From: an uncultured Bdellovibrionales bacterium
GTDB taxonomy: Bacteria; Pseudomonadota; Alphaproteobacteria; Micavibrionales; GCA-2720935
Direction: 5' to 3'
Length of the DNA stretch: 64,000 nt
Assembly (NCBI GenBank): GCA_964351525.1
Contig: CAYGOD010000001.1
Location: 78,534-142,533, forward strand
The notes under the pieces were generated by a model. It was not told where the DNA came from and made no database searches. It was given only the letters and a program-made list of their open reading frames with translations. This document shows positions 8,296 through 27,853 of the stretch, one piece after another (the first letter of the stretch is position 1; each line of letters begins with the position of its first letter). Made by a program: the position numbers and the translations under genes.

Positions 8296-8383
8296 GGGGA
8301 GGTGGCTGAGTGGTTTAAGGCGCACGCCTGGAAAGCGTGTGGGGTGCAAGCCCTCGAGAGTTCGAATCTCTTCCTCTCCGCCA
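8296..8383 (+). tRNA. tRNA-Ser (anticodon GGA), long variable arm, encoded CCA
   Basis: Acceptor stem GGGGAGG/CCTCTCC (one G-U pair). D-arm GCTGAGTGGTTTAAGGC. Anticodon stem-loop CACGC-CTGGAAA-GCGTG. There is a long variable arm, a T-arm GAGAGTTCGAATCTCTT, and a terminal GCCA. Confidence 0.9.
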
Positions 8384-8558: not shown

Positions 8559-9518
8559 TTATTCCCAATGAGTAATACTCATTTTATTTGGAACTGCAAC
8601 ATGAAATGATCTCGTAGCGCCGTCGCCAGCATATCCTAGTTGCCAGCCATCAAACTTGCCATCTTCACTTTTTGACCATTTTTTTTGTATAGAGCCATAA
8701 ATACCTGAATTTGAATCCTTGATCATCTCCTCATCCATCTCAATATTCCATTTAGTGCTTTTAAATGGGTGATCTTCATCAAATGTATAGAGTGGAAGAC
8801 GAGTTAGTTTAATTGCTGTATCTCTAAAGATCTTGGTACATGGTATAATATCGTTGTTTTGGTTTACTGCATCTATGCTTTCAAGATAATTTGACAGTTC
8901 TATTGAAGATAGTGATATATATGTCAAAATTTCCCATAGAATTGATGTAATAGAAATTATCTTTTTACCATTACTATGAAGTATATGATGCGGTGCAGCT
9001 TGCCCGTTTTTATAACCTTCAACAAAAAAGCCTAATAAGAAGATGGTGGCCCCATCATGATGAAAATCTGTTTCAAATAGTCTTATGCGCCCATGATTAT
9101 GTTTTATTGTGTTGGTGTAGTTTGATATTTCATCTCTTAATGGTTTAAGGTTCCTTTTTAAAGAACGCAAACTTTTATCTTTTGATGCAGAGAAATTATT
9201 TTTAAAAAATGTTTTGGCCACAGTTTCTATATCATCATTATGCTCTGCTGCTGCGTATAAAGAAAGCTCCAAATAGTCAATAATCTCATCTTTTATAGCT
9301 TGATCTTTTGGCGTATCAATCCAGTGCTGTTCTAACTTATCTGCACATTTTTTTACCTTATCACAAATACGAGATAATGAGAGGTTATACACTCCGAGAG
9401 GATGACGCAGATCTCTTATTTCATGGTAAGATGCCATGGCTTTTAAGCTAGCTAAAGCCTTAATTGCTGGCAAACAATTTCCAGTATCCTCAGGATCAAT
9501 TTTTATTTCGGGTTTCAT
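8559..9518 (-). CDS. Hypothetical protein (no recognisable domain), first gene of the accessory region
   Basis: A 319-aa ORF with a terminator downstream. No motif recognised. Confidence 0.5.
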   Translation of the reverse strand: MKPEIKIDPEDTGNCLPAIKALASLKAMASYHEIRDLRHPLGVYNLSLSRICDKVKKCADKLEQHWIDTPKDQAIKDEIIDYLELSLYAAAEHNDDIETVAKTFFKNNFSASKDKSLRSLKRNLKPLRDEISNYTNTIKHNHGRIRLFETDFHHDGATIFLLGFFVEGYKNGQAAPHHILHSNGKKIISITSILWEILTYISLSSIELSNYLESIDAVNQNNDIIPCTKIFRDTAIKLTRLPLYTFDEDHPFKSTKWNIEMDEEMIKDSNSGIYGSIQKKWSKSEDGKFDGWQLGYAGDGATRSFHVAVPNKMSITHWE

Positions 9519-9571: not shown

Positions 9572-11170
9572 TCAGAAACCAAAGGTTTCTTTTTGTTCAG
9601 ACCATGAAAGCGGTATGTTGCCCAACATCAAGCGGGCAAGGATAAGGGTATCAGGCTGACGTCCTTCTAAAATGGCGGTCTGAATTTCTGGCGCAAGGAA
9701 AATAAGGTTATAAATTTGGCGTACATAGCCTCGGCGCATATTTTCAGAATCTGCAACTTCTTTAAATGAATTCACTTCACCACTTTTAAGCATGCGATTC
9801 CACTTATGGGCGCGAATAAGCGCTTTGATTAGCGCAGGATCTTTTTTGGTTGTCGTAGGCTTTAGGTCTTTGCCGTTTTCATCAAGTATAAGTTTTTTAC
9901 CGCCATACTTTCTAAATCCTGCAGGCAGATCATATTCTTGTAATGGGCCCTGAGCTGTTTTGATAACTATGCGGATTTTATCTGTAAAAATAACAACTTT
10001 TTCAATCAGCCCCTTTAAAACGGCACGTTTATCCAAATAGGTTTTGTCGTTCCAATTCTTCAATAATATTTTCTGCTCCTCATCCTCTATGTTTTTGTTC
10101 AGCTGATCCAATACAACGGCTTCGAGATCTTTTTGCGGGACGCGTGGGACGTCTGCTTTTTGCGCTCCTTCTTTAATAGCAACTTGGCTGATGTAATAAT
10201 GGTGATAGCACCGTGTTCCATCTTTGAGCTTTTTACCACTATAGCCTGGTGAATAAGCTCGACCTTCAACATCAAAGACCATTCCCTTTAATAGAATGTG
10301 TGATCTATGATGATTACTCTCTTTTTTAGTGTTGTTTTTTGAAAGCTTGGTTTGAACAGCATCCCACAATTCTTGATCGATGATAGCCTCATGCAAGCCA
10401 TCATATAATGTGCCCTTGTGATGTGTTTTACCGAGCAAAAGCGGATTATTAAGAAGCTTTGATAAATAGCCGCGATCAAAATAGCTTCCACCACGTTTAT
10501 GTCCTTTTTCAGTTGTCCAACGTTTATTGATAATGCCTTGCTCGCGCAAATGATCAATGAACGTAATGATAGATTTAGCCTTTAAATAACCGTCAAATAT
10601 ATAGCGTACTTGTTTGGCTTCGGGTTCGTTAATAACGAGGTGGCGATTTTTAATGTCATAGCCCAGCGGCGGCGTGCCGCCCATCCACATACCCTTCTTT
10701 TTACTAGCCTCGATTTTATCGCGGATACGTTCGCTTGTGACTTCCCGTTCAAACTGAGCAAAAGACAAAAGCATATTGAGCGTCAATCGCCCCATCGAAT
10801 CTTTAGTGTTAAAACTCTGCGTGACAGACACAAAGGTCACGCCATGTTCGTCAAACAGTTCAACCAGTTTGGCAAAATCATGTAAGGACCGAGATAGCCG
10901 ATCAACCTTATAAACGACTACTACGTCAATCAATTTTTTCTTAATATCGGCGAGCAATGCTTTCAGAGCTGGACGACCCATATTGCCACCGGAAAAGCCG
11001 CCGTCATTATACTGCTTTTTAACGACACTCCAACCTTCTGATTTTTGGCTTTTGATATATGCCTCGCCAGATTCACGCTGTGCATCGAGTGAATTAAAAT
11101 CCTGCTCCATGCCATTTTCAGATGACTTGCGGGCATAGATGGCACAGCGTATATTTTTATCATTCTTCAT
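9572..11170 (-). CDS. Large serine recombinase (resolvase/invertase N-domain + recombinase domain + zinc-ribbon region)
   Basis: Contains CAIYARKSS (catalytic Ser), LDAQRE, DGGFSG, VVVYKVDRLSRSL and SFAQFERE. The ATG at 11170 (MKNDKN…) is preferred over the GTG at 11182, because it gives the same box-to-ATG spacing as the two related genes. Confidence 0.9.
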   Translation of the reverse strand: MKNDKNIRCAIYARKSSENGMEQDFNSLDAQRESGEAYIKSQKSEGWSVVKKQYNDGGFSGGNMGRPALKALLADIKKKLIDVVVVYKVDRLSRSLHDFAKLVELFDEHGVTFVSVTQSFNTKDSMGRLTLNMLLSFAQFEREVTSERIRDKIEASKKKGMWMGGTPPLGYDIKNRHLVINEPEAKQVRYIFDGYLKAKSIITFIDHLREQGIINKRWTTEKGHKRGGSYFDRGYLSKLLNNPLLLGKTHHKGTLYDGLHEAIIDQELWDAVQTKLSKNNTKKESNHHRSHILLKGMVFDVEGRAYSPGYSGKKLKDGTRCYHHYYISQVAIKEGAQKADVPRVPQKDLEAVVLDQLNKNIEDEEQKILLKNWNDKTYLDKRAVLKGLIEKVVIFTDKIRIVIKTAQGPLQEYDLPAGFRKYGGKKLILDENGKDLKPTTTKKDPALIKALIRAHKWNRMLKSGEVNSFKEVADSENMRRGYVRQIYNLIFLAPEIQTAILEGRQPDTLILARLMLGNIPLSWSEQKETFGF

Positions 11171-11180
11171 AACACCATAC

Positions 11181-11207
11181 ACGCTTCCTTTAGCGCGGAA
11201 GTCCAGT
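11181..11207 (-). promoter_or_regulatory. 27-nt conserved leader box, copy A (ACGCTT-N12-AAGTCCAGT on + strand)
   Basis: The same flanks, 27-nt length and 10-nt distance to the ATG occur at 12340-12366 and 26734-26760. Confidence 0.5.
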
Positions 11208-11220
11208 TATATTAACGAGC

Positions 11221-11895
11221 ATGGAACAAAAGAATAAAAAGCAAAAAACAGCACAAGATCTATATGATGGCCTAGTTATCATTGCCGAGAATATTTGTGC
11301 TGAAATTAAATGGGCATACGTCAATTATGAGATTCTTGACGCATGCAATCAAAAAAAGATTACCGATAAGTTTACAAACACATATTCAGGTAATGTATGG
11401 GCTGTTCTACGTAGAAGCTTGCTAAATGAAACTCTTTTAGCTTTGTCTAAAGTTATTATAGATAAAAAGAATAAACCGTCTTCTTTCCACGCCTTGCATG
11501 AGCTTTTGAAGAAAGAAGAAGTAATAGAGCTGGTAAAGTTAAATTACACGCAAGCTGAAGATGCGTTTGATGATCGTCTTCAAGACTTGTTGGAAGGCTT
11601 ATCTTCTTTAGATGAATTTTTGAAAAATCATGATGCTTTCAAAAGCTTAGCCGCCCACCGCAATAACTATCTGGTACACAGGTCACAGAAAGTTTCTAAA
11701 TCTGTCAGAAACTTTCAATGGGGAGATGAAAAAACATTAATCAGTATTGTTGCTGATATAATGCACCCTATGGAACTTATGATTTTGAATGGTGGAAACA
11801 TTTCTAATTCAACTAGGTCTGTTTACAGAGCATATGCTAAAAACTTCTGGGATAGCATCGAACCAGATGATGCAAGGTTTAAATATACAGACTAA
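11221..11895 (+). CDS. Putative HEPN-domain protein, AbiU2-like (abortive-infection family)
   Basis: All-alpha-looking 224-aa protein with an R-x5-H motif (AAH-R147-NNYLV-H153-RS) in the C-terminal half, as in HEPN Rx4-6H nucleases. The general layout is remembered from AbiU2. No search was run. Confidence 0.4.
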   Translation: MEQKNKKQKTAQDLYDGLVIIAENICAEIKWAYVNYEILDACNQKKITDKFTNTYSGNVWAVLRRSLLNETLLALSKVIIDKKNKPSSFHALHELLKKEEVIELVKLNYTQAEDAFDDRLQDLLEGLSSLDEFLKNHDAFKSLAAHRNNYLVHRSQKVSKSVRNFQWGDEKTLISIVADIMHPMELMILNGGNISNSTRSVYRAYAKNFWDSIEPDDARFKYTD

Positions 11896-12329
11896 TTTCT
11901 CTTATCTTTCCTTAAGCCAAAAAATAAGGGCCCCGACCAATGAGATCCTGTGATTTCTTTAGCAATGGTTGTAAGGCTTGTATATTCACAACCGTTATAC
12001 TCCAGCCTTTTCTTATCATGGACATAGACGATATAGGTCTGTCCATTCCATTCCCGCTTTAGGATCGTTTTTGATGGGAGTTCGTGTTTCTTGATCGGCG
12101 CTTTAACTTCACCGCTGATAAGTCGATTGAGCTTTGTACGCGTACGCGCAGGCAATCCGCCACACGCTTTTTCCTGCACATGCCACGCGATATGGCGCAT
12201 GATCAAATCACGGCTAGATGGCTTTTCTTTATTGCCAAAACAATCAGCCCAAAGCGTGTGCAACGTTTTCTTGTCAGTTGTTTTTAGCATATTTAAGTCA
12301 GATAATATATGGCCCTGCATCTTCTTCAT
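11892..12329 (-). CDS. DUF2924 domain protein (recombinase-associated)
   Basis: Contains LWADCFG…SRDLIMRHIAWHVQEKACGGL…LKREWNGQTY…YTSLTTIAKEITGSHWSGPLFFGLR, which matches the remembered DUF2924 consensus well. Confidence 0.8.
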   Translation of the reverse strand: MKKMQGHILSDLNMLKTTDKKTLHTLWADCFGNKEKPSSRDLIMRHIAWHVQEKACGGLPARTRTKLNRLISGEVKAPIKKHELPSKTILKREWNGQTYIVYVHDKKRLEYNGCEYTSLTTIAKEITGSHWSGPLFFGLRKDKRN

Positions 12330-12339
12330 GAAGACAGTA

Positions 12340-12366
12340 ACGCTTCCTTAGAGCACGAAGTCCAGT
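12340..12366 (-). promoter_or_regulatory. 27-nt conserved leader box, copy B
   Basis: Sequence ACGCTT-CCTTAGAGCACG-AAGTCCAGT, lying 10 nt from the DUF2924 ATG. Confidence 0.5.
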
Positions 12367-12396: not shown

Positions 12397-13200
12397 TTAG
12401 TTAATTTTCACTGCAAACGGTGCAAAGACCTGCTTTCCATCAATTTGAACCTGGGCGAATAGCTTTAAATACCCCGCTTGTTCCGGTTCAATATGAAAAC
12501 GCAAGGTTGGGCCACCACGTTCGGTGTCTTCAGTTGGTTCTGCGCCCATAGGGTGAATATGCGCGATAGTTTCATAATCTTCATAAAAGCCAACCATGTG
12601 CGCAAAAGCCCCCATGACAGGCTCAAGGACGTTTACGGCTTGCCCATCTTTGGAAATACTCACAGTGCTCATAACAGATTCTCCAGCCTTTAAGTCACCC
12701 TCCAATTCAAGCTTAAAGTCATACCCTTGTGATGAAGACTCGAAGCTCACTGTTTTATCAATTGGCTCTCTGCATTCTGCCGCGCCTTTTAAATCAACAG
12801 GTACATATTGTTGGTCTGATCCTTTAAGTTGAACATCCACCCAAATACGATAAGAGCAAGTAGTTTGTGGTGTAAAATTAAAAGCATATTGCCCAGTTGA
12901 TGTTTGAGTTGGATGTTCATGGTGATAATCATTCAATTCAGGGTCAATGATTAATAGGTGAACGGGTTTTGTATGAACAACCTTAAACTGCGACACATCC
13001 ACTGGCTGTGCTTGTTTATCTTGAACAAACAAAACAAGCGCATTTTCCTCTCCAGCTTTCAATTCAGCTGGCGTGATAGGCGTGATAATAAGTTGAGCCT
13101 CTGAATGGTTATGTCCGTCATGATCGTGTCCAGGTCCTGCCCATGTGGGCTGAATAAACGCGACTAGTATAAAAATTGTAGTGAAAATATGCTTTAACAT
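12397..13200 (-). CDS. Secreted His-rich putative metal-binding protein
   Basis: Signal peptide followed by AGPGHDHDGHNH. Internal HHEHP and AHIHPMG motifs. It is the last gene of the czc-type operon and overlaps the czcD-like gene by 7 nt. Confidence 0.5.
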   Translation of the reverse strand: MLKHIFTTIFILVAFIQPTWAGPGHDHDGHNHSEAQLIITPITPAELKAGEENALVLFVQDKQAQPVDVSQFKVVHTKPVHLLIIDPELNDYHHEHPTQTSTGQYAFNFTPQTTCSYRIWVDVQLKGSDQQYVPVDLKGAAECREPIDKTVSFESSSQGYDFKLELEGDLKAGESVMSTVSISKDGQAVNVLEPVMGAFAHMVGFYEDYETIAHIHPMGAEPTEDTERGGPTLRFHIEPEQAGYLKLFAQVQIDGKQVFAPFAVKIN

Positions 13201-14114
13201 TGTTGAGTTTCCTTCCTTTGGTTATTCATTTCAAAACATTTTTGATGTTCAAATTCCAATGTTGAGTGGTCGATGGAAAAACGATCTTTGAGTATTTGTT
13301 TCAGCTCTCGCTTGACCTCATCCATTCGGCCTTGATCGTCTATCACGACATGCGCTTCTAGAGCGTTGCGATTTTCATCCAGTTGCCAGATATGAACATG
13401 GTGCACATTCTGAACGCCTGCTTGTGTTTCCATGCTTGAAATTACATCTTCAATCGCTATGCCTTTCGGCGTTCCTTCCATAAGCAAGTGAATGACTTTC
13501 GGAATCTCGTGCAGTCCGTGATATAAAACATATCCGGCAATCAACAACGTCATTGCAGCATCCGTCCAAACCCAACCATAAAGTAAAATCAGTGTTCCGG
13601 CGATAATTACGCCAACCGAGGCAAGCGCATCCGTCAAGTTATGCAGAAATGCCGCCCGCATATTCATGCTATTTTTGGATTGACTATAGGTCAAAAAGGC
13701 CGTGAACAAATCAACTACTAAAGCTATTCCAGCAACAATAACAATCGTCCATCCGGCAATGGGTTCTGGTGTAATAAAACGCATAATTGCTTCATAGCAA
13801 AGATAGAGTCCGATAATGATCAAAGTGATCAGGTTAATAAAGGCCGCTATAGTTTCGGCGCGTTTATAACCAAATGTTTTGAATTGATCCGGCGGTTTGC
13901 GGCCAATACGAATTGCAATCAAAGCAATAAGCAGAGAAGCCGCATCGCTAAAATTATGTAGGGCATCGGCAATCAACGATAAACTGCCAGAAATTATGCC
14001 GCCGATCACTTGCGCCAGTGTGAGCAGTATGTTCGCACCCACCGCCCACCATAGGCATTTTTCGCCTATTTCAGATGGATCTCCATGGTGATGATGGTGC
14101 TGTCCGTGTCCCAT
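13194..14114 (-). CDS. czcD: Cation diffusion facilitator (CDF) metal efflux transporter
   Basis: N-terminal His tract (GHGQHHHHHG) and six TM helices. CDF signature around LIADALHNFSDA and HNLTDALASVG. A C-terminal cytoplasmic domain is present. Confidence 0.85.
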   Translation of the reverse strand: MGHGQHHHHHGDPSEIGEKCLWWAVGANILLTLAQVIGGIISGSLSLIADALHNFSDAASLLIALIAIRIGRKPPDQFKTFGYKRAETIAAFINLITLIIIGLYLCYEAIMRFITPEPIAGWTIVIVAGIALVVDLFTAFLTYSQSKNSMNMRAAFLHNLTDALASVGVIIAGTLILLYGWVWTDAAMTLLIAGYVLYHGLHEIPKVIHLLMEGTPKGIAIEDVISSMETQAGVQNVHHVHIWQLDENRNALEAHVVIDDQGRMDEVKRELKQILKDRFSIDHSTLEFEHQKCFEMNNQRKETQQC

Positions 14115-14117
14115 AAT

Positions 14118-14846
14118 TTACCCTATGTATTGTGATAGTATCCAGAAAGACATTGCTATCATCATTAAATTTTCAGTTAAGGATACAAAACCAAGTGGCA
14201 CGTTGCTATTCCCACCAACACATGCACATTTTAGTTCGCGTTTATCAACATAAACCGCTTTAAAAACAGAAATTGCGCCGACCGTTCCGATAAACAGGGC
14301 TGCGGGTGCGGAAATGATAGTGAGAAATCCCGAAATCATCGCCACGCCCGCGAGTGTTTCAATGAAGGGATAAACGTAGCCATACTTGACCCACCTTTGA
14401 GCCAGAAGATCGTAATTCAAAAATTGTAAGCTAAACGCTTCTAAGTCTCTTAACTTTTGGATACCCAATACGCACATGCTAATAGCAATAAAAAGCTCAA
14501 TCATTCTAATGATATTCAGCTCACCAATGGCCCATGCCGTTGAGAGGGCCATAAGGAAAGTCGTGGCGAAAATTGCGATAATGGGTTTGTAGGTCGTGCC
14601 TTCCTGTTTTTTTCCGAAAAATTCTTTCAGATCATCATATCCACCGATACGTTCTCCATCAATGAAAGTTTGCGGCGTTGTCTTTACATCATGCTTTTGT
14701 TTAAACACATCTGTTTCTTCGCGGCTGGTCAGATGATTATCTTCAACCTCGTATCCTTGAGCTTTTAAAAGATCGAGTGATTTTAAACCATACGGGCATA
14801 TATGCTTATCCATGACCATGCGGTAGAGTTCGGCTTTTTTTGTCAT
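14118..14846 (-). CDS. Glutaredoxin-like domain fused to MauE/DoxX-type membrane domain
   Basis: The N-terminus (CPYGLK…TPQTFIDGERIGGYDDL) is glutaredoxin-like. The C-terminus has four or more TM helices and a CAC motif. The ATG at 14846 has a good SD (AAGGAGAT); the track extension to 14924 would overlap czcA. Confidence 0.6.
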   Translation of the reverse strand: MTKKAELYRMVMDKHICPYGLKSLDLLKAQGYEVEDNHLTSREETDVFKQKHDVKTTPQTFIDGERIGGYDDLKEFFGKKQEGTTYKPIIAIFATTFLMALSTAWAIGELNIIRMIELFIAISMCVLGIQKLRDLEAFSLQFLNYDLLAQRWVKYGYVYPFIETLAGVAMISGFLTIISAPAALFIGTVGAISVFKAVYVDKRELKCACVGGNSNVPLGFVSLTENLMMIAMSFWILSQYIG

Positions 14847-14865
14847 TTTAAAAAATCTCCTTTTT

Positions 14866-17800
14866 TTATAAAACGCGCTGCTTTGTTTGCTGTTCCAAAT
14901 AACTTTGTGAAGCCTTCTCGCCAAATCTCCAGAACACCAATGGTGTAACGATGAGGTTTAGAAGCGTAGAACTGAATAGACCTGAGAAGATCACGATCGC
15001 AACAGGGCTAAGAATTTCTTTTCCTGTTTCACCAGCAGCCATTACGAGTGGTGTAAGGGCAAGCAGTGCCGTTAATGCAGTCATAAGCACTGGCACAAGC
15101 CGTTCTTGTGTTCCACGTTTGAGCATTTTAAGATCAAAGCTCTCACCCTCATGTTTCATGAGGTGGAGATAATGCGAGATCATCATAATGCCGTTGCGTG
15201 ATGCAATCCCTGTGAGCGTTATAAATCCAACCATTGTAGCGATTGAAAACACGCCGCCTGTCAGATAGATACCAATCACAGCACCAATGAAGGATAGCGG
15301 AATAGCAAGCATAACTTGTAGGCTAAGGTTGATTGAACGGAAATGTGTATAGAGAGCAAGGAACATTCCCAAAAGCGAGAAAATACTCAAGATTAAGATG
15401 TTACGTTGTGCTGTTGCTTGGCTTTCAAATTGCCCGCCATAGCTAATGTAATATCCCGATGGCAGTTCCAGCTTTTCATCGAGTATCCTTTGAATATCTT
15501 CAACGACACTTACCACATCACGACCTTGCGTATTGGCTTGTACAACCATACGGCGGCTAACACCTTCGCGGTTAATCAAGTTTGGCCCTTTGGCTTCCTC
15601 AATGTCTGCAAAAAGTTGTAAGGGAACAACATTACCGCGCAGCGTTTCAAACGGGATTTTGCCAATAGCTTCTTTATCCTCCCGAGCCTCATCATTAAGG
15701 CGCAAAACAACATCAAACAAACGATTGCCATCAATGATATTGGTGACGGTTTGTCCCTGCATCGCAAGCTCCGCATGTTGCGCGGCCTCACCAATCATAA
15801 CGCCATGTTGCTTGGCTTTATCACGGTCAAAATTCACATGAATTTGCGGTATTAGAAGCTGTTGCTCCATTTGCAAGTCAGCAATACCTTCAACGCCCTG
15901 AACCAAGGTCTGTACTTCGGCGGCCTTAGTACGCAATATATTGAGATCATCACCAAAGATTTTAATGGCAATTTGTGCGCGAACACCTGAGGTAATAAAA
16001 TCAATACGGTGAGATATAGGTTGACCAATATTGATAATCACGCCGGGAATTGAGCCGAGCTTTTCACGAATATCCGAAACGATATCTTCTTTATGTCGAT
16101 CCGATGATTTTAATGTTACTTCTAACTCTGTCGAGTTTACACCAAGCGCATGCTCATCTTCTTCGGCGCGACCCGTTCTTCGTCCAGTATCCGCAACTTC
16201 GGGAATTTCATGCATAAGGTTTTCTGCCAAAATACCGAGGCGATTACTTTCCTCCAACGATGTACCCGGCGGCGATGTTACATTGATTGTAAAACTACCC
16301 TCATTAAATTCAGGCAAGAATTCGCGCCCAAATGTTGGCACAAGCATTAACGCGCCTAAAAACAAAGCCGTTACAATTGCTAAAACAGACTTAGGGCGAG
16401 GCAATGCAAAATTTAAAACCCAAGCATGTCCAGATTTTAACTTTCGGACCATCCATCCATCTTTCTCGTCCTCCATACGCTTCATTTTGGGCAGAAGATA
16501 CGAGCATAAAGCGGGCGTTACAGTAAGTGATACAAGCATTGAGGCCACAATTGCGGTGATGTAAGCCACCCCAAGAGGGATAAACACTTTTCCTTCAAGA
16601 CCGCTCATCGCAAAAAGTGGTAAGAATACCATGAACACAATTATAGTTGAAAAGACAATCGAGTTCCTGATCTCCTTCGATGCTTTGAAAACAACACTTA
16701 AAGCGGGCTCTTTGTCTTTTTTATGCCTGTTTTCTCGCAATCGCCTGAATACATTTTCAACATCAACAATTGCATCATCGACGAGTTCACCAATTGCCAC
16801 AGCAAGACCGCCAAGCGTCATGGTGTTGATACTCATCCCGAACCATTTGAAGATGATCAAGGTCACAACAATAGATAAAGGAATAGCAACAAGCGTAATT
16901 GCGGTTGTCCTGAAATTTAGCAAAAACAAAAACAATATAATCGCTACCAAAATAGATCCATCACGCAGAGCTTCGATGATGTTGTGGATAGCGTTTTTAA
17001 TGAAGTCCGCCTGTTTAAATATCTCAGGATTGAGGACTACATCTTCAGGTAGTGAATTCTTGATAGATATTAGTTCTTTTTCAATTCGGTCAGTTAAGCC
17101 AATCGTATCTGTACCCGGTTGTTTTGAGACGGCAAGTAACACACCGGGCTTACCATTAACAGACGCGTCACCACGTTTAGCGATTGGTCCAGCTAATTTC
17201 ACCTCGGCTACGTCTGCAAGAGTTAGGGCAGGCATATCAGGTGAAACCTCTTTCGCAATGACGGTTTTTTTTAAATCATCAAGAGATCGAATAAGCCCTA
17301 AATTACGAACGGAATGTTCTTTATAGGCATCCAGTAAAAAACCACCTGTGGTGTTTACATTTGCATTTTCCAATGCCTCACGCACCTGATGTAAAGTAAT
17401 GCCGTGATTAAGCATTTTTTCGGGATCAACTAGCACGTGATATTGTTTTAAATCACCACCAATCGCCGTAATTTTTGATACACCACTAATGCCTAAGAGC
17501 CTTTGTTTTACATCCCAATCAGCAATCGTTCGTAAATCGAGAGGTGGTATATCAGGGTTTTCAGATGTGATGCCAATAAACATCACTTCTCCCATAATTG
17601 ATGATACTGGCCCCATGATGGACTGAACATCTTCGGGAAGGCTCCCTGCGACTTGGTTCAATTTTTCGGCAACAATTTGTCGAGCGAGATAAATATCCAT
17701 ATCCCAGTCAAATTCAACATAGACAATCGAAAACCCAATCGATGATGACGAACGAACCGTTGTTACACCACTCGCACCATTCATGGCAGCCTCTACAGGA

Positions 17801-18000
17801 AAAGTTACAAGCGTTTCGACTTCTTCGGGGGCAAGCCCATGCGCTTCACTAATAATTGTAACTGTGGGGCGGTTTAAATCAGGAAACACGTCCACTGGAA
17901 GTGTGCGCACAACTTGAAAGCCGTAGACCGTCATGAGTGCGGCGATAGTTATCACCAAAAGGCGATAATTCAGGGCAAAACGTATAATTGTATCAAACAT
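14866..18000 (-). CDS. czcA: Heavy-metal efflux RND pump, CzcA/CusA family
   Basis: A 1044-aa protein with 12-TM RND architecture. Typical HME-RND blocks are present (AIGELVDDAIVDVEN, GVSRRMVVQAN…). Confidence 0.9.
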   Translation of the reverse strand: MFDTIIRFALNYRLLVITIAALMTVYGFQVVRTLPVDVFPDLNRPTVTIISEAHGLAPEEVETLVTFPVEAAMNGASGVTTVRSSSSIGFSIVYVEFDWDMDIYLARQIVAEKLNQVAGSLPEDVQSIMGPVSSIMGEVMFIGITSENPDIPPLDLRTIADWDVKQRLLGISGVSKITAIGGDLKQYHVLVDPEKMLNHGITLHQVREALENANVNTTGGFLLDAYKEHSVRNLGLIRSLDDLKKTVIAKEVSPDMPALTLADVAEVKLAGPIAKRGDASVNGKPGVLLAVSKQPGTDTIGLTDRIEKELISIKNSLPEDVVLNPEIFKQADFIKNAIHNIIEALRDGSILVAIILFLFLLNFRTTAITLVAIPLSIVVTLIIFKWFGMSINTMTLGGLAVAIGELVDDAIVDVENVFRRLRENRHKKDKEPALSVVFKASKEIRNSIVFSTIIVFMVFLPLFAMSGLEGKVFIPLGVAYITAIVASMLVSLTVTPALCSYLLPKMKRMEDEKDGWMVRKLKSGHAWVLNFALPRPKSVLAIVTALFLGALMLVPTFGREFLPEFNEGSFTINVTSPPGTSLEESNRLGILAENLMHEIPEVADTGRRTGRAEEDEHALGVNSTELEVTLKSSDRHKEDIVSDIREKLGSIPGVIINIGQPISHRIDFITSGVRAQIAIKIFGDDLNILRTKAAEVQTLVQGVEGIADLQMEQQLLIPQIHVNFDRDKAKQHGVMIGEAAQHAELAMQGQTVTNIIDGNRLFDVVLRLNDEAREDKEAIGKIPFETLRGNVVPLQLFADIEEAKGPNLINREGVSRRMVVQANTQGRDVVSVVEDIQRILDEKLELPSGYYISYGGQFESQATAQRNILILSIFSLLGMFLALYTHFRSINLSLQVMLAIPLSFIGAVIGIYLTGGVFSIATMVGFITLTGIASRNGIMMISHYLHLMKHEGESFDLKMLKRGTQERLVPVLMTALTALLALTPLVMAAGETGKEILSPVAIVIFSGLFSSTLLNLIVTPLVFWRFGEKASQSYLEQQTKQRVL

Positions 18001-18014
18001 ATCTAATTCCTCCC

Positions 18015-19031
18015 TTAATGCTTATGATCGCTGTTATCGTCATGGTCATGTCCATCATCATGTGCGTGACCTTCCTGCTCATCATGTGTGTCTTCTTCAT
18101 CAATGTGTTCCTGAACTCCTCCAACAGACATATATTGAAGCTGATAATTTCCATTAGTCACAACACGTTCATTTGGGAATAGACCGCTTTTAATTTCAGT
18201 GTGATGACCTGTCTTTACCCCAACTGTCACCTCGCGCTTTTCAACCCCTTGGCCTTTCATAACATATACGAAGTAAGAGCCAAGCTCACCTAAAACAGAT
18301 CGCTTTGGAACCGCCATAACTGGCGCATCCGACCCTGTGAAAATTTCCATTGTTCCTTGTAATCCGGGTTGAATATCGCGCTTTGGGGTATCAATCATGG
18401 CAAAGATTGAAAATGTACGGCTTTCAGGGTCAATAACGCGGTTAATACGCTGTATTTTACCCTCAATATGACGATCAGGTGCAATATCAAGATGCAGTTT
18501 GGCTTTCTGCCCTACCTTCAAGATTTGAATGTCTGGTGTCTCATAAGCAACACCGCGCACTAGCATTTGGGAGGCATCACCGATTTCAAGAATATCGCCA
18601 CCAGCATCAATTATATCACCTACGCCTGCGTGCAGATTAAGAACAAATCCATCAATAGGTGAGGACAAAGCAACATTGCTACTTCCAACACTAAGGGGTT
18701 CCAGCGTGGCAAGACGTTGCCCTTTTTTCACTTCTTGTCCGACCTGAACAGCAATATCAAGAATCTTACCGCCAAACCTTGGAGAGATGGATGCTTGTTT
18801 CTCAGGCAATAATTCAGTGAAGGCTAACATATCAACAGCTTGTGCAATCGATAAAAACTCAACTTTTTCCGATTGAATATCCAGATTACTCATTTGTTGA
18901 TTGGTTAAATTAAAATGGGTTGCAGGGCCTGCGCCGCCAGCAAAGGCACTTTCCCCATGGTCGTGTCCAGGACCTGCATAAGCTGGGGCAATAATTGCAA
19001 TAAAAGCTATTAATATTAAAATTTTATTCAT
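18015..19031 (-). CDS. czcB: RND periplasmic adaptor (membrane fusion protein), His-rich termini
   Basis: Signal peptide followed by AGPGHDHGES. Contains lipoyl/beta-barrel MFP blocks and a C-terminal HDEQEGHAHDDGHDHDDNSDHKH tail. Confidence 0.85.
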   Translation of the reverse strand: MNKILILIAFIAIIAPAYAGPGHDHGESAFAGGAGPATHFNLTNQQMSNLDIQSEKVEFLSIAQAVDMLAFTELLPEKQASISPRFGGKILDIAVQVGQEVKKGQRLATLEPLSVGSSNVALSSPIDGFVLNLHAGVGDIIDAGGDILEIGDASQMLVRGVAYETPDIQILKVGQKAKLHLDIAPDRHIEGKIQRINRVIDPESRTFSIFAMIDTPKRDIQPGLQGTMEIFTGSDAPVMAVPKRSVLGELGSYFVYVMKGQGVEKREVTVGVKTGHHTEIKSGLFPNERVVTNGNYQLQYMSVGGVQEHIDEEDTHDEQEGHAHDDGHDHDDNSDHKH

Positions 19032-19036
19032 GATTT

Positions 19037-20260
19037 TTATTCCTTTGTGTTTGCAAGACTTTGACCAACTAAGCTTTCAAGCTCAATTCGCGCCTCGATA
19101 GAATTTAGGTATACTTGTAAGGCTTCGCTTTGCACATCCGTAATCCTTTCACGCATTTGAAAAAGATCGAGGATTGAAGCCTGTCCATTTTCAAATTTCT
19201 TATCAGTAATGGATTGCACATCATCCCAAGATGGAACGATTTTATTGCGATATGTAGAGGCCGAGATTTGCGTGGCCTTGGCTTGATCATAAGATGCTGC
19301 CAAAACATTCACAAAGTTTTGCTCATTCAGGGCATTAAGATTACTTTGTGCCAAACGGCGTTCTGCATTAGCTCTAGAAAGTTCGGCGTTATTTCGATCC
19401 CATATCGGAATGGCTATATTTACACCGAATAAAATTGCGGTGCTGTTTTCGTCAAGATCGCGCTCTATAACTGCACGAGGCGCAAACTCTGGAAAACCTG
19501 CATCTTGCCGCGCCACATTGTAGCGTCTTTCTGCAAGGGCTTTGCGGCTTTCCAAAAGACTTCGGATTGATCCCTCATTACCCGCGAGAGATGTTAAGGC
19601 CGTTAGATCAGGAATTTCAGGGCTTTTAGGCCGCTTAACATCAAAGCTCGTTTGATCCATGCCAGCCATCCGTAAAAGATTTGTCGCACCGTTTGTCTTT
19701 CTGGAGCGAATAACACGAAGTTGCTCTTCCAAACGGAGCGCTTCGGCTTTAAAGATTTTGGCATCTGCCGCATCAACACGTCCATCCTTTGCTGCACGCT
19801 CAATCAGCTTTTGCTTCTTACGTGCATAGCTAGCGTTTTCAGATAAAAGCTTTTCTTGTTCCTGCAAAGCCCAATAAGAAGAATAGCCACGCGTAATAGA
19901 GTGAATAAGTTCCAACATCTGAGCTTTCTGCTCAATACTAGCTGTTCTGCGTAGTGCGTTGGCGTATGAACCGCGCGACCCAAAATTGGAAAGCCTCATT
20001 GGCTGCTCTATCTCAATACCTACAGAACGCGAAGTACCGTCTTCAATCGCTGTAATATTGATTTCTGCTGTAGGGTTACTAAGCGTTTCAATTTCAAACG
20101 CCTCGGCATCAGCGTCTGCAAAATCATTTAAGATACGTGCAGTTTCTGGGCTGTTTTGAAGAGCTTGTTTAATAACTGTTTCTAGTGAAAGCGTTCCTGC
20201 TTTTGCTGCTTGAGTAGGCGCAAACAAAGCAACCAGCAAAATTATATATAAATATTTCAT
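19037..20260 (-). CDS. czcC: TolC-family outer membrane factor
   Basis: Signal peptide MKYLYIILLVALFAPTQAAKA and two coiled-coil/beta repeats typical of OMF proteins. The ATG at 20260 is preferred over the track start at 20332. Confidence 0.8.
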   Translation of the reverse strand: MKYLYIILLVALFAPTQAAKAGTLSLETVIKQALQNSPETARILNDFADADAEAFEIETLSNPTAEINITAIEDGTSRSVGIEIEQPMRLSNFGSRGSYANALRRTASIEQKAQMLELIHSITRGYSSYWALQEQEKLLSENASYARKKQKLIERAAKDGRVDAADAKIFKAEALRLEEQLRVIRSRKTNGATNLLRMAGMDQTSFDVKRPKSPEIPDLTALTSLAGNEGSIRSLLESRKALAERRYNVARQDAGFPEFAPRAVIERDLDENSTAILFGVNIAIPIWDRNNAELSRANAERRLAQSNLNALNEQNFVNVLAASYDQAKATQISASTYRNKIVPSWDDVQSITDKKFENGQASILDLFQMRERITDVQSEALQVYLNSIEARIELESLVGQSLANTKE

Positions 20261-20346
20261 TGTTATTTCCGTTTTTAAATGTTCATAGAAAAACGCAGCC
20301 CTAAACAGAGCTGACGCAAAATGCAGGCACAATTAGCCTGCGAACA

Positions 20347-20691
20347 TTAAATACGGGGTGGGCGACGCAATGCCGAGTGCTTGAAAGAATTATGATTATC
20401 AGAAGAAACTAAAATAAACGGCACGTTGACATTCATAGGTGTTTTTAAAGGGGCATTAAAAGTTGTAATTGTTTGAGAATGAACACAGCAACAATCAGTA
20501 CATGAACCTTGCTCTTGATTTTCATCCTGATTGTGGCTCTGCCCTGAGTGGCAAGGTTCGCTATCTGTTTTGTTGTGTTGCTCCATTTGATAATGATCAC
20601 ATGCATGGTCAGCAACATAAGCATGTGCTAAATCGGAAAAACCTCCGACAACGAACATAAATAAAAATATGCATAAGGTGAAAACTTTCAT
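20347..20691 (-). CDS. Small secreted Cys/His-rich protein (first gene of the czc-type operon)
   Basis: Signal peptide followed by a mature part rich in His, Cys, Asp and Gln (DHACDH, CHSGQSH, SCTDCCCVH). It occupies the position of small czcI-like periplasmic proteins, but no homology was established. Confidence 0.4.
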   Translation of the reverse strand: MKVFTLCIFLFMFVVGGFSDLAHAYVADHACDHYQMEQHNKTDSEPCHSGQSHNQDENQEQGSCTDCCCVHSQTITTFNAPLKTPMNVNVPFILVSSDNHNSFKHSALRRPPRI

Positions 20692-20775: not shown

Positions 20776-21180
20776 TTATTTATCTTTATTTTGATCGTCT
20801 ACCCCATATATCGGAGGCATAGGCTCAACTGGCCCATAAGGCGGTCTAATGATAATAGTAGGTCTCTGCATTGATTGCTCAACGGGAGAGGCTTTTTCAA
20901 GATATTGCATTACAGTTTTTAAAGCCTGCATATTGCCTTTCAAGCTCTCGCTGTAAAGCTTGTTAATAAGGGCTTCCTTTAGTTCTATCTGTTCTTTCCT
21001 TCCACCTTTGTTAATTGTGACAAGTTGTTTGGACACTTCGAGAAAAGTATCCCAAAATTTCTTTTCTTTTTGTGCATTAGTTGGGCGCCCATTTTGATTG
21101 CCAGATTGTCCTTTTTGAAACTGCGTTGATTTTGGCGGTCTGCCGTAGCCCACTTCATAGTCATCGTTATTATCCGTCAT
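20776..21180 (-). CDS. DUF5681-like protein
   Basis: The motif GYGRPPKSTQFQKGQSGNQNGRP matches the remembered DUF5681 N-terminal signature. The ATG at 21180 overlaps the upstream gene's end by 11 nt. Confidence 0.55.
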   Translation of the reverse strand: MTDNNDDYEVGYGRPPKSTQFQKGQSGNQNGRPTNAQKEKKFWDTFLEVSKQLVTINKGGRKEQIELKEALINKLYSESLKGNMQALKTVMQYLEKASPVEQSMQRPTIIIRPPYGPVEPMPPIYGVDDQNKDK

Positions 21181-22483
21181 GGTGCTCTCCCTTCTTTTGA
21201 TCAAAGGTTTGTCCATCTTCGTGAACTGCAACTTTTAAAGTTTCTTCCTTGTAGCGTTGGATGATCACATCGACATATTTAGGATCAAGCTCGATTAATC
21301 TCGCCTTACGCCCAGCTCGTTCAGCAGCGATTAATGAGCTGCCACTGCCGCCAAATACATCGAGAACAATATCACCACGTTTAGTGCAATCGAGGATAGC
21401 ATCTTCAATCATGATAACTGGTTTCACTGTAGGATGAAGCTCAAGATCTTTGTTGTTTTGGAATGTATTCACACCTGCATAGTCCCACACATTGGTGCGA
21501 TAACGCCCATGCTTGCCAAGTTCTACATTGTTGATATGAGGTTCTGTTCCATTTTTATAAACAAACACCAATTCATGTTTAGATCGGTATAGCGAACCCA
21601 TACCGCCATTGGTTTTGTTCCATATGCATAAATTCTTGAAATCATCATAAATCTCGCCGGCCTTGGTGATTTCTTTGATGTGACGCCAATCCATACAGAT
21701 ATAATGGAGTGAACCATTAATGGAATATTCCTTGAGATTCTGAAATGCGGTTTTCAAGAACCGTGTGAATTCTTCTTCTGACATCTCACCCGATGCCATT
21801 TTGAATTCATCATGTTTGACTTTGCCATTCCCACAAATGTGACCGTTTACAGGCACATTATAGGGTGGGTCTGTAAAAATGGCTTGGGCCCGTTCAGATT
21901 CCATCAAGCGTTCGTAAGATTCTGACTTGGTGGCATCACCACAATACAAAATATGTTCTCCCAGATACCACAGATCGCCTAATTGACTCACTGGGTTATT
22001 TGGAAGATTCAGAATTGATGGTTCTTCTGGCGATGCTTGATTACCCATCATAAAACCATCAATCTCAGCAATTTCAAAGCCAGTGAGCGTTAAATCAAGG
22101 TCGAGATCAAGGTCAGCAATGGTCTGAATTTCTGACTGTAGGATTTCAAAGTCCCAGCCAGCGTTTTCAGCGAGTTTATTATCAGCGATGATATAGGCGC
22201 GCTTCTGCGCTTCGGTTAAATGCCTCAGATAGATAATAGGTACTTGATGAATTCCAACAAGCTTAGCCGCTTCAAGGCGTCCATGACCAGCAATAATAGT
22301 ATGATCTGCATCAATCAGAATGGGGTTGGTAAACCCAAACTCGTGCATACTATCGGCGATTTGCTGAATTTGCTTTTTTGAATGCGTACGTGCATTGCTT
22401 TTAAAGGGTTTAAGGTCACTAGATTTTAAATAATGGATTTGTAAGTTTTGCCCAAGATGGGCAAAAGCATCTGCTTTTTGCAT
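21170..22483 (-). CDS. ParB-like N-terminal domain fused to N6/N4 DNA methyltransferase
   Basis: ParB-N blocks (NARTHSKKQIQQIADSMHEFGFTNPILID, IIAGHGRLEAA). Methyltransferase motif IV IFTDPPYNV and AdoMet motif VLDVFGGSGSSLIAAE. Confidence 0.85.
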   Translation of the reverse strand: MQKADAFAHLGQNLQIHYLKSSDLKPFKSNARTHSKKQIQQIADSMHEFGFTNPILIDADHTIIAGHGRLEAAKLVGIHQVPIIYLRHLTEAQKRAYIIADNKLAENAGWDFEILQSEIQTIADLDLDLDLTLTGFEIAEIDGFMMGNQASPEEPSILNLPNNPVSQLGDLWYLGEHILYCGDATKSESYERLMESERAQAIFTDPPYNVPVNGHICGNGKVKHDEFKMASGEMSEEEFTRFLKTAFQNLKEYSINGSLHYICMDWRHIKEITKAGEIYDDFKNLCIWNKTNGGMGSLYRSKHELVFVYKNGTEPHINNVELGKHGRYRTNVWDYAGVNTFQNNKDLELHPTVKPVIMIEDAILDCTKRGDIVLDVFGGSGSSLIAAERAGRKARLIELDPKYVDVIIQRYKEETLKVAVHEDGQTFDQKKGEHHDG

Positions 22484-24554: not shown

Positions 24555-24680
24555 TGGGGTTTGCTTTATTTACGGCTCTGCGTAAAGTAGTTTTATGGCC
24601 GATTTCACGGTTGCACAAAAAATGATTGATAGAATCAATTATGCCTTACAGAATATATTATACATTACGTAGATATTTTC

Positions 24681-25210
24681 TTTCCCTGATATTTCCCTGT
24701 TAATTGTTGGTCATATAACGGTGCCTTTGTCGTAACTTATTGTTTTGCAATAGGTTACAAGCTCTTAAATGTCCGTACTATTAAATATTACTAAAATTTT
24801 CCCTGTAAATTCCCTGTTTAACAGGGAATTTGCTATGATCGTTTAGTGCTATTGAAAAGCACTACACCGCCATACAGTCTTGCGTTTTTCCAAAAATAGA
24901 TATTTATCGTCCATGCCCGCGCTGTTTGCGGGCTTTCTAATATACGTCTTTAAAAGCCCTCATTGAGAATTGCTGAATAAAGCCAAATTATACCCATTCT
25001 CTCTTGGCCCTATATAGGCGAGGGCTCTTGCACAGTGTTTCAGGGTTTTAACACATTCAAATGACTTCTTAATTCCCTGCTAACAGGGAATTTTACAGGG
25101 AATTTTCTATTTTTCTAAAGCAAAAAAGCACCATAATGAAGCTGTTAGCAGTGTGAGCCTGGTTTCATGATGAATGACTCATTATATAATGCCAAATTAA
25201 CAGGGAATTT
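24681..25210. repeat. Array of nine A(A/T)TTCCCTGT(T/A)A motifs in both orientations (iteron/operator-like)
   Basis: Forward copies lie near 24682, 24693, 24799, 24810 and 25073. Reverse copies lie near 24821, 25083, 25095 and 25199. There is a perfect 25-bp palindrome AAATTCCCTGTT-T-AACAGGGAATTT at 24807-24831 and a second palindrome at 25071-25092. Tandem copies are spaced 11 bp apart. Confidence 0.8.
24915..24938 (+). terminator. Intrinsic-terminator-like hairpin inside the non-coding stretch
   Basis: GCCCGC-gctgttt-GCGGGC followed by TTTCT. No ORF lies upstream of it. Confidence 0.35.
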
Positions 25211-26723
25211 AAAGACGAATTAGTGTTTCAAAACTATCAATGATTGATTGATGTATATGATTTTTACTATGTGAGCCTTGCTTTGCAATATCAACCAAGC
25301 TTTCACCGTCGAAATGACGCGCTCTCCAAGAGATGCCCTTTACTACCCGTTTTAATAAATCTGCGTTCTCGTGACTAAATAGATCAAGTTTTTCTTGGTT
25401 GTCTGGTTTCTTTAATATGATAGCGTTTCTAGATTGTGTAAAAATATAATCGTATATGATGCATTCTGTTTCTGCGTATTTATCTTCATGACTCAAAACA
25501 TCTTTCCAAGAATAAGAAACTTTAATGTGAGAATGGCTTAGTGTTACACGTTGAATGTATCTCTGAATAACATCGGTATGTGTGTGGGGTCTCATATTGT
25601 CTGATGAAGAACTAAAAGCTAGTTTATCTATTGATACTTTGCTTAATTGTTCTTTGAGTTTTTCAGTTATAAAATCTTCAATTTGTTTTGCTGTGATGCG
25701 CGCGATAAGACCTTTGGGGTGATCTTTATATTGAAGTAGGTTCTGAGATATATAATAGCGATATTGCTTGGTCTTACCGTTCTTGGTTTTTTTAACAGTA
25801 TATGTTGGGCTGTACGGTGTACCATCAGGATCAAAGAGCAAGCCTTGTAACATATATTTAGATTGTGTCGTTTGCTTTCTAGCCGTAGCGTTCTCTGTTA
25901 ATAGTGTCTGTGCTTTGTTCCATGTTTCTTCATCAATGATTGCGTTGTGCAGACCCTCATAGATTTTATCTTTATGTGTTATCTTGCCGATATAAGCTTG
26001 GTTCTTCAAAATCTTATAAAGGCTTCCTCTGCTATAATATTTGTTACCATGCGTTCGTCCTTTCTGTGATGTCCGTATGGGGCTTTTTATGTTGTCTTGT
26101 TCGAGTGATGCCTTTAGCTCTTTGACTGATCTATATTCGAGATACCGTTTAAATATAAGTTCAGCTATTGGTGCCTCATCTTTATTAATCGCTAACTGCC
26201 TATTATCGATTGAATAACCAAGTGGTGCGGATCCACCCATCCACATGCCCTTAGCTTTACTTGCAGCAATTTTATCTCTGATACGCTCGCCTGTGACTTC
26301 ACGTTCAAATTGAGCAAAGGACAGTAAGACGTTAAGCGTTAATCGTCCCATCGATGTTGTTGTGTTAAAGCTTTGTGTGACGCTGACAAAGGTAACGCCG
26401 TATTCGTCAAAGACTTCTACCAGTTTTGAAAAGTCGGCCAATGACCGTGTTAGTCTATCAATCTTATATACAACTACGATGTTAGCCTTATAGGTCTTAA
26501 TGTCTTCTATAAGCCGATCTAAGGCTGGTCGCTCTAATGATCCCCCCGAATACCCACCGTCATCATAATGGACCTTGCTGGGTGACCAGCCTTCAGATTT
26601 TTGGCTTAAGATATAAGCCTCACATGCCTCACGTTGTGCGTCCAATGTATTGAAGGTCATGTCAAGGCGTTCATCTGTCGATTTACGGGTATATATGGCA
26701 CATATTTTTTTAGCATTCGTCAT
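25209..26723 (-). CDS. Large serine recombinase (paralogue of 9572-11170)
   Basis: Contains CAIYTRKST, LDAQRE, DGGYSG, VVVYKIDRLTRSL and SFAQFERE. The N-terminal ~200 aa are clearly alignable by eye with the first recombinase; the C-terminus differs. Confidence 0.9.
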   Translation of the reverse strand: MTNAKKICAIYTRKSTDERLDMTFNTLDAQREACEAYILSQKSEGWSPSKVHYDDGGYSGGSLERPALDRLIEDIKTYKANIVVVYKIDRLTRSLADFSKLVEVFDEYGVTFVSVTQSFNTTTSMGRLTLNVLLSFAQFEREVTGERIRDKIAASKAKGMWMGGSAPLGYSIDNRQLAINKDEAPIAELIFKRYLEYRSVKELKASLEQDNIKSPIRTSQKGRTHGNKYYSRGSLYKILKNQAYIGKITHKDKIYEGLHNAIIDEETWNKAQTLLTENATARKQTTQSKYMLQGLLFDPDGTPYSPTYTVKKTKNGKTKQYRYYISQNLLQYKDHPKGLIARITAKQIEDFITEKLKEQLSKVSIDKLAFSSSSDNMRPHTHTDVIQRYIQRVTLSHSHIKVSYSWKDVLSHEDKYAETECIIYDYIFTQSRNAIILKKPDNQEKLDLFSHENADLLKRVVKGISWRARHFDGESLVDIAKQGSHSKNHIHQSIIDSFETLIRL

Positions 26724-26733
26724 GCTTACAGTA

Positions 26734-26760
26734 ACGCTTGGCGTGACCGCTAAGTCCAGT
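26734..26760 (-). promoter_or_regulatory. 27-nt conserved leader box, copy C
   Basis: Sequence ACGCTT-GGCGTGACCGCT-AAGTCCAGT, lying 10 nt from the recombinase ATG. Its central 12 nt differ from copies A and B but can still form a hairpin. Confidence 0.5.
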
Positions 26761-27484: not shown

Positions 27485-27853
27485 TTATTGTTTTCTCGTT
27501 TCACACCAACTTTTACGATACCCTTCATAGGGCCTTGCATCATCTAATTTGATCAGTTCTTCGCCTATGTTGAGGTCTTGATGATTATAGACAGTTGCTA
27601 ATGTACGGTCGTATTTGTCTGTACCAATGTCTTTGAGGGTCACAGGCTTATTATCAATCAACGCAATGAGCGCTTTTTTAGATTGCTTTGCTTTTGTGAT
27701 TTCGGATGCACATTTGCCTTCGATTTCTGGTGTATCGATATTGCGAATGCGGACACGATTGCGTTCGATAGTGCCATCTTCATGTTTAATATCTGCAGTG
27801 AATGTATCGCCATCATAAACGCTTACTACGTTAGCGCTATATTTTGGCATCAT
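27485..27853 (-). CDS. Thermonuclease (staphylococcal nuclease-like) family protein
   Basis: Contains VVSVYDGDTFTADI, VRIRNIDTPE and DKYDRTLATV, the SNase catalytic-core pattern. Confidence 0.8.
   Translation of the reverse strand: MMPKYSANVVSVYDGDTFTADIKHEDGTIERNRVRIRNIDTPEIEGKCASEITKAKQSKKALIALIDNKPVTLKDIGTDKYDRTLATVYNHQDLNIGEELIKLDDARPYEGYRKSWCETRKQ

Follow-up and report, generated by a model that had tools for sequence, protein, structure and literature searches.

Large serine recombinases (LSRs) are the integrases of many phages and genomic islands and are widely used as genome-engineering tools, and to our knowledge the control of their expression is mostly unknown. The described systems closest to the locus reported here are the promoters of leaderless mRNAs, such as lambda PRM-cI, Tn1721 tetR and those of many Actinobacteria and Deinococcus genes; the promoters of extracytoplasmic function (ECF) sigma factors, with a spacing of 16-17 nt between their -35 and -10 elements; and the insertion sequences IS10 and IS50, in which fold-back inhibition shields the transposase genes from outside transcription. 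Here we analysed a 64,000-nt stretch of DNA (the window, by which we mean the whole stretch) from an uncultured Bdellovibrionales bacterium (GTDB order Micavibrionales; GenBank assembly GCA_964351525.1, contig CAYGOD010000001.1, positions 78,534 to 142,533 of the forward strand). A 27-nt box occurs in it ahead of two LSR genes, rec1 and rec2, and ahead of a gene of the DUF2924 family; it belongs to a signal found across many phyla, which we are inclined to read as a promoter.

The pattern ACGCTT-N12-AAGTCCAGT was found exactly three times in the window, at 11181-11207 (box A), 12340-12366 (box B) and 26734-26760 (box C), and allowing up to 2 mismatches added no further copies. Dinucleotide-preserving shuffles of the window gave a mean of 0.05 matches, with three or more in none of the 100. 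All boxes are co-oriented with minus-strand genes, each stopping exactly 10 nt ahead of an ATG: box A before rec1 (9572-11170, 532 aa; Pfam Resolvase and Recombinase, PHROG integrase), box B before DUF2924 (11892-12329, 145 aa; Pfam DUF2924, E = 1.8e-34), and box C before rec2 (25209-26723, 504 aa; a second LSR by Pfam and PHROG searches). Pattern scan and gene coordinates thereby confirmed the preliminary description, which had reported three copies in one orientation at this distance and had seen A and B bracket DUF2924 plus a gene of AbiU2 type as direct repeats. Read on the minus strand, box A is ACTGGACTT-ccgcgctaaagg-AAGCGT, followed by GTATGGTGTT (11171-11180) and the rec1 ATG; box B is ACTGGACTT-cgtgctctaagg-AAGCGT, followed by TACTGTCTTC and the DUF2924 ATG; and box C is ACTGGACTT-agcggtcacgcc-AAGCGT, followed by TACTGTAAGC and the rec2 ATG. 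Their nhmmer scores against the family profile were 23.6, 24.4 and 21.1 bits, respectively. The likeness extends slightly past the 27 nt, as (T)(A/G)ACTGGACTT ... AAGCGT, and the tail after AAGCGT reads TACTGT in boxes B and C and GTATGG in box A. Given an identity of only 52% between rec1 and rec2, and box flanks that differ from copy to copy, the retention of 15/15 specified bases indicates that these bases are under selection.

Beyond the window, scans of viral and metagenome contigs turned up 190 matches to the exact pattern. In 63 of them a homologue of DUF2924 or of a recombinase started no more than 1.5 kb downstream on the same strand, and in 2 such a gene lay upstream. Demanding an ATG exactly 10 nt after the exact-pattern match kept only 3 real loci, others being recovered by profile search. 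A DUF2924-seeded scan with one genome per species yielded 80 loci at ≤42% identity; the DUF2924-seeded loci span Acidobacteriota, Magnetococcales, Alpha-, Gamma- and Deltaproteobacteria, Verrucomicrobiota and others, and the box was present in 54/84 of the genome loci. In a viral sample seeded with rec2, for which the box was not used in selection (box-blind), the generalised box was found in 29/63 non-redundant DUF2924 upstream regions versus 0/63 control regions. This generalised form, CT(T/G)G(A/G)(C/T)TT-N12-(A/G)(A/C)GCG(T/C/G)-NN-aTG, stands ahead of DUF2924 or serine-recombinase genes in phages, prophages and genomic islands of many bacterial phyla, with first/second block variants such as CTGGACTT/AAGCGT, CTTGACTG/GAGCGT, CTTGGCTT/GCGCGT and CTGGATTT/GAGCGC. 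The closest DUF2924 relatives come only from metagenomes: in loci L001-L003 (DUF2924 70% identical) the arrangement is TTGACTGGACTT-ctatctgtaagg-AAGCGTTACTGTATTC-ATG, with box and 10-nt distance as in the window and a DUF5681 stop codon immediately ahead of the box. The motif also occurs in Acidithiobacillus phage AcaML1 and on a Ralstonia megaplasmid; no clear copy was seen in Wolbachia phage WO. A literature search returned only passing mentions of DUF2924 in Wolbachia papers and nothing on leaderless serine recombinases or the motif strings. The window boxes are local copies of a widespread short DNA signal, and not the recent local duplication that the preliminary description would have accepted had the box been missing ahead of such genes elsewhere.

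Box anatomy was taken from column statistics over 130 non-redundant boxes, in which only the columns not fixed by the pattern scans are informative. An A is conserved just before CTGG, the N12 is moderately conserved (roughly c-c-n-g-C-g-C-a-A-A-G-g), and the second block is followed by two free bases and then by a, T (121/130), G (95/130) and g. The first block holds a -35-like hexamer, TGGACT in the window (4/6 positions of TTGACA) and TTGACT (5/6) in many relatives. Lying 17 bp past it is a hexamer GTnnAT, whose GT closes AAGCGT and is followed by four further bases; the final T of the hexamer is near-invariant. This T lies exactly 7 nt ahead of the A of each ATG in the window, and 7 nt (range 6-8) ahead across the short type, that is, boxes close to their start codon. 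The distance from box to start is bimodal: short forms lie at 9-11 nt and long ones at 24 nt or more, the latter with a recognisable Shine-Dalgarno (SD) sequence, and no intermediate distances occur. The six non-redundant boxes directly before a recombinase gene (window A and C and loci L228, L239, L173 and L232) all lie at 10-11 nt, the recombinase genes of L228 and L239 being rec2-like and having their box at the same 10 nt as rec2, and short-form DUF2924 boxes were found in the window, L001, L211 and the GC-rich viral contig L114. Start codons are ATG in nearly all short-type cases, including the three in the window, the base before the start codon is a pyrimidine in 9/9, and the 10-nt spacers GTATGGTGTT, TACTGTCTTC and TACTGTAAGC hold no SD. 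Wherever found, the box is co-oriented with and upstream of a gene. The SD-like AAGGAAG that had been pointed out in A and B is present there and absent from C, but it ends 13 nt before the ATG, too far for a normal SD.

Taken together, this geometry and context lead us to consider it somewhat probable that the DUF2924 and LSR genes are driven by a portable, non-canonical promoter specific to their module, of which the box is the core and which may also serve as an operator. T(T/G)GACT would act as the -35-like element and GTnnAT as the -10-equivalent, and transcription would begin at or within a few nt of the start codon; a leaderless start is suggested because the 17-bp and 7-nt spacings are those standard for the sigma-70 family, with a pyrimidine at -1. 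The mRNAs of the three window genes would have no leader, or almost none, and would be translated without an SD; all three indeed start with AUG and have no SD 5-10 nt upstream, while the -35 hexamer resembles TTGACA as in sigma-70 promoters. Only transcripts initiated at the box would be translated, and the recombination genes would be insulated from read-through out of the cargo, namely the metal-efflux operon upstream of box B and AbiU2 beside box A; a recombinase separated from DUF2924 by cargo would keep its own box copy. It is from the observed motif, distribution, spacings and contexts that we infer the transcription start, the sigma factor, the binding protein and the insulating role. 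The preliminary description had offered several roles for the box, of which promoter or operator best fits the spacing, the context and the family-wide pattern, and translational operator, structured leader and recombination site fared worse.

The arrangement of cargo provides a further line of evidence. Locus L001 has the order ParB-methylase, DUF5681, box, DUF2924, recombinase, with a single box, no cargo, and a DUF2924 stop codon overlapping the recombinase start (ATGA); its recombinase is 75% identical to rec1. The window shares this backbone and carries inserts at two places: a metal-resistance cluster of 8.3 kb separates DUF5681 from box B, and AbiU2 separates DUF2924 from box A. Four further loci (L228, L239, L173 and L232) have unrelated cargo between DUF2924 and the recombinase, and a second box 10-11 nt before the recombinase ATG. 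The presence of both A and B in the window would thus be explained, as a recombinase cut off from DUF2924 by cargo carries its own box. Box A is not a recent copy of box B, given that its tail GTATGG matches the recombinase-type boxes of these four loci and the B tail TACTGT differs. In window A, L228 and L232 the divergent cargo gene starts 13-24 nt from the box (intergenic regions of 50, 61 and ~52 nt), which, as these cargo genes are unrelated, leaves little room for any other promoter.

Forms in which the box is distant from the start codon can be accommodated in the same scheme. In several long-leader lineages the stretch just past the box pairs with the SD/AUG region, and 10/44 leaders have folding z-scores below -2.8. 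Of the pairs made by the last 15 nt of the leader, 70% go to positions 1-13 after the box, and these 15 nt have a pairing of 0.30 instead of 0.47 when the RNA is taken to start at the predicted position. Read-through transcripts of such genes would therewith be closed and box-initiated ones open, and in the window an internal AUG without an SD would give the same insulation as the leader hairpin would elsewhere.

Several observations nevertheless weigh against a promoter. The base at the -11-equivalent position is T, G or C, and never A, in the 130 boxes, which is not a canonical sigma-70 -10 element, and a scan with the sigma-70 consensus called no site on the gene strand at the boxes. The ECF hallmark is likewise lacking: group 4 ECF promoters carry AAC within their -35 box and CGT within the -10 box, with GGAACTT for E. 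coli RpoE (PMC8103513), and the box has GAC, GAT or GGC in place of AAC, the column before AC being G in 130/130. A missing SD is weak evidence by itself, because SD use is low in this genome generally, a 4-mer SD at -18 to -4 being found in only 14/50 open reading frames (ORFs) of the window. Often a co-directional gene ends immediately ahead of the box (L001, L223), and terminators just upstream of boxes were as rare as in the control (3/93 versus 5/93), a count uninformative on separate transcription units; with boxes abutting co-directional stops and no terminators, read-through transcripts containing the box must exist. The leader hairpins of L173, the L029 clade, L228 and L239 begin 1-3 nt after AAGCGT and use G.U pairs, suggesting that some transcripts start at or upstream of the end of the box, since the hairpins include that region; this fits read-through or a role at the RNA level. 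The promoter role, finally, is argued from geometry and context only.

Such read-through and leader hairpins would be expected if the box acted in RNA, transcribed from promoters farther upstream or by read-through of the preceding genes, as an SD-independent translation-initiation or operator element bound, for example, by DUF2924 or another protein, with the duplicate before rec1 restoring translation after cargo had broken the DUF2924-recombinase coupling. We regard this as a minor possibility. It would account for boxes a few nt past a co-directional stop with no terminator, and for hairpins with G.U pairs starting so close to the box; and as the recombinase start of cargo-free relatives overlaps the DUF2924 stop, a duplicated initiation region would be needed once cargo is inserted. 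The spacings are harder to account for, as the blocks look like a -35 hexamer and an RNA element has no reason to keep 17-bp and 7-nt distances; moreover, any promoter driving the recombinase from farther upstream would, in each of three cases, fall within an unrelated divergent cargo gene that starts 13-24 nt away.

RNA structure lent this alternative little. The preliminary description had proposed a hairpin in all three copies with covariation in C, and neither part held. Box A can form CUUCC/GGAAG, B only CUUC/GAAG (the fifth pair would be G.G), and C only CUUAGCG/CGCCAAG with an A.C mismatch; RNAfold did not choose the proposed hairpin in A, B or C (z-scores -1.5, +0.1 and -0.7). Among 94 context-validated boxes the outer three pairs consist of bases that never vary, and pairing is possible in 59-61% at pairs 4-5 and in 35% at pairs 6-7, leaving the stem broken in ~40% and ~65% of boxes at these positions. 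Overall pairing in the CTTCC/GGAAG dyad was 68% versus 64% in shuffles, a weak excess in favour of an RNA element, but one of the kind that relatedness alone can give, and the counts of G.U match chance. Six short-type copies folded no better than shuffles (z -1.5 to +0.8), into minimum-energy structures that differed between copies, and Rfam 15 held no match for the window box or a related locus at gathering score or E up to 5. An RNA hairpin with covariation was therefore rejected on pairing frequencies and folding energies.

Two coding explanations were also rejected. A conserved peptide (L-D/G-F...S/R-V) is incompatible with the frames, none of which is consistently open (the three frames have an open stretch of 40 codons or more upstream in 29, 11 and 24 of 88 boxes, respectively), and there are in-box stops in B and L001. 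An upstream ORF from the ATG 2 nt past the box, which in box A would read ATG GTG TTA TGA and overlap the rec1 start, is not conserved: the start position is CTG in B, C and L001 and ATA in L228, and the L114 frame has no stop. Only in the AcaML1/Ralstonia clade does the box lie inside a small ORF (L272 3232-3423, which is AcaML1 gp5, and L274 3700-3910), with a conserved peptide LGF.P.QRVH, and there the box DNA may be under both coding and signal constraint. A different elaboration is seen in relatives of alphaproteobacterial type (L223 4650-4765, also L037, L085, L087, L212 and L225), where a GC-rich leader of ~110 nt, containing several hairpins (gggccgcttccggccc; gccc..gaccggtcaaccggcggggc) and without an Rfam match, lies between a second box and a DUF3489-like winged-helix gene. 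Their first box lies ~300 nt upstream of the second, ahead of a small ORF (MxxDDxxRELxxRLF) that it is predicted to drive.

Another reading, to which we give slightly less credence than to an RNA element, takes the box to be mainly a DNA operator for the element-encoded DUF2924 or recombinase, co-regulating the module, with polymerase signals secondary or separate. In its favour, the blocks fit host sigma consensus sequences poorly yet are kept across phyla, which points to a factor carried along by the element; no genes other than DUF2924 and the LSR always accompany the box; and the same box before each separated gene follows the logic of a regulon. DUF2924 was found directly upstream of the recombinase in 67/68 loci with enough sequence among the box-blind viral contigs L275-L354, whose recombinases are 42-56% identical to rec2, and the one exception also shows a DUF2924 C-terminus on inspection, so that by gene order the DUF2924-LSR pairing looks obligate. 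In the AlphaFold model of DUF2924 (predicted local distance difference test, pLDDT, 82) the N-terminal half is helical, and the C-terminal domain is small and rich in beta structure. The model's best PDB fold match is the MPND-DNA complex, in which a RAMA domain sits on DNA, with a probability of 0.87 but E = 0.37, which is not significant; a DUF2924 homologue (P0007) has a sub-threshold Pfam RAMA match. The C-terminal domain is thus putatively RAMA-like and DNA-binding. An operator alone leaves the exact 10-nt distance to ATG and the empty interval of 11-24 nt unexplained, and the two blocks are asymmetric, with a dyad of only 5 bp. At the same time, an operator is compatible with the promoter we favour rather than exclusive of it.

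Because a non-consensus sequence has been kept across phyla, an element-borne factor may read the box, and DUF2924, being always present, is the obvious candidate. We tentatively suggest, as a speculative extension of the promoter model, that DUF2924 might bind the box and recruit or gate RNA polymerase at a promoter poorly read by host sigma factors alone, forming a self-contained circuit that travels with the recombinase. If true, such a circuit would let the module keep one leaderless mode of expression control, proof against read-through, in hosts of many phyla, and would explain the cross-phylum conservation of a non-consensus promoter sequence.

It is improbable that the box is an attachment (att)-like or cassette-capture site of the serine recombinases, the A and B repeats being scars of cargo insertion. 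That A and B flank a segment with cargo (AbiU2), that different cargo occupies the same slot in the window, L228, L239, L173 and L232, and that the conserved stretch of ~38 bp has the size of a serine-recombinase site would all be in keeping with this. The repeats, however, flank DUF2924 plus cargo and not cargo alone, and box A, of the old recombinase-type lineage, is not a recent copy of B. Cargo-free elements have single boxes, inside the element and not at its ends, and boxes are always gene-directed at fixed start-codon distances. Their dyad (CTTCC/GGAAG) covers only 5-6 bp, in contrast to att sites of ~40-50 bp, in which a longer imperfect dyad typically surrounds a central dinucleotide. 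A chance match or recent functionless local duplication, for which only the small size of the motif speaks, is refuted by the shuffles, by the bases kept between diverged flanks, and by the recurrence of the motif in hundreds of unrelated contigs in the same context.

Turning to the rest of the island, the AbiU2-type gene (11221-11895, plus strand; Pfam HEPN_AbiU2) is opposite-strand cargo that separates DUF2924 from rec1. Only 13 nt stand between its ATG and the upstream edge of box A, and the gene is preceded on the plus strand by TATATT-aacgagc-ATG (11208-11220), without an SD; since this -10-like hexamer abuts the edge of box A, the AbiU2 and rec1 signals would overlap back to back. At the other end of the gene, the AbiU2 and DUF2924 stop codons overlap at 11892-11895, making the two genes convergent with no spacer and no terminator, and their transcripts must therefore each run antisense into the other. 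The metal-resistance cargo (12397-20691, minus strand) is co-directional and directly upstream of box B, and comprises YtkA-like, cation diffusion facilitator (CDF) efflux and MauE/DoxX genes, a CzcA/B/C-type resistance-nodulation-division (RND) pump and a DUF2946-like ORF. It is followed by the backbone DUF5681 and ParB_N/N6_N4 methylase genes (20776-22483, minus strand), which in cargo-free L001 lie immediately upstream of the box. Annotation searches of the island proteins recognised no sigma, anti-sigma or regulator genes.

A tRNA-Ser (GGA) gene (8296-8383) lies ~1.2 kb past the end of rec1, with an unannotatable ORF of 319 aa (8559-9518) between them; this region may be one end of the island, and no att repeat was identified. 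The noncoding stretch just downstream of rec2 (24680-25215) holds at least 8 copies of ACAGGGAAWTT in both orientations, for example at 24807-24831 (AAATTCCCTGTT/AACAGGGAATTT), and looks like an iteron or regulator-binding array. On the other side of rec2, an SNase-like gene (27485-27853, minus strand; region 27485-27880) is preceded by ctggTATAATgattatATG, an extended -10 element (TGgTATAAT) without an SD. The last T of this element is 7 nt ahead of the A of the ATG, as in the boxes, and the upstream layout is a textbook leaderless one; as the gene is unrelated to the module, the shared spacing speaks for the promoter reading of the boxes.

As a short DNA signature open to searches, the box marks the transcription units of one large LSR clade and its near-constant DUF2924 partner, with cargo (an Abi defence gene, a metal-efflux cluster) slotted between units that each keep their own box. 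It also provides a testable model for the insulation of recombination genes from cargo transcription, and a concrete hypothesis for DUF2924, a family without a known function and almost without literature.

Of the known promoter classes, sigma-54 (GG-N10-GC) does not fit the box spacing and variable N12 in a by-eye check of the columns, and none of the resemblances to sigma-32, sigma-28, MerR/CueR-type long-spacer promoters, and LexA or Cheo boxes fits the conserved columns and spacings. The promoters of leaderless mRNAs are closer: the box abuts the start codon, the predicted start is the A of the ATG, and there is no SD at a working distance. Unlike these promoters, the -10-equivalent GTnnAT lacks an A at -11, the spacer is occupied by a second conserved block, (A/G)AGCG, and the box is tied to one mobile-element module and conserved across phyla, not following the consensus of each host. 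With ECF promoters it shares TGGACTT, which resembles GGAACTT, and the arrangement GAC-(TT+N12+AAG = 17 nt)-CGT in all three window copies, CGT being the most conserved part of the second block and present in most boxes. In contrast to ECF systems, CGT varies to CGG, CGC and CAT in relatives, and the element yielded no ECF sigma or anti-sigma gene. As in IS10 and IS50, the predicted -10/start region past the box pairs with the SD and AUG region in several relatives, and the leaderless layout of the window would give the same insulation; unlike there, the hairpin is lineage-specific and not universal, and the window copies lack it. The box also resembles the Rfam cis-regulatory RNAs of integrase and mobile-element genes in that comparative genomics revealed it as a short conserved stretch ahead of a recombinase module, but differs in having neither a family match nor a conserved secondary structure. 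Leaderless-gene promoters are a known kind, as are transposase or recombinase genes that are insulated; what is new is a module-specific box shared across phyla, with a non-consensus second block, and tied to the uncharacterised DUF2924.

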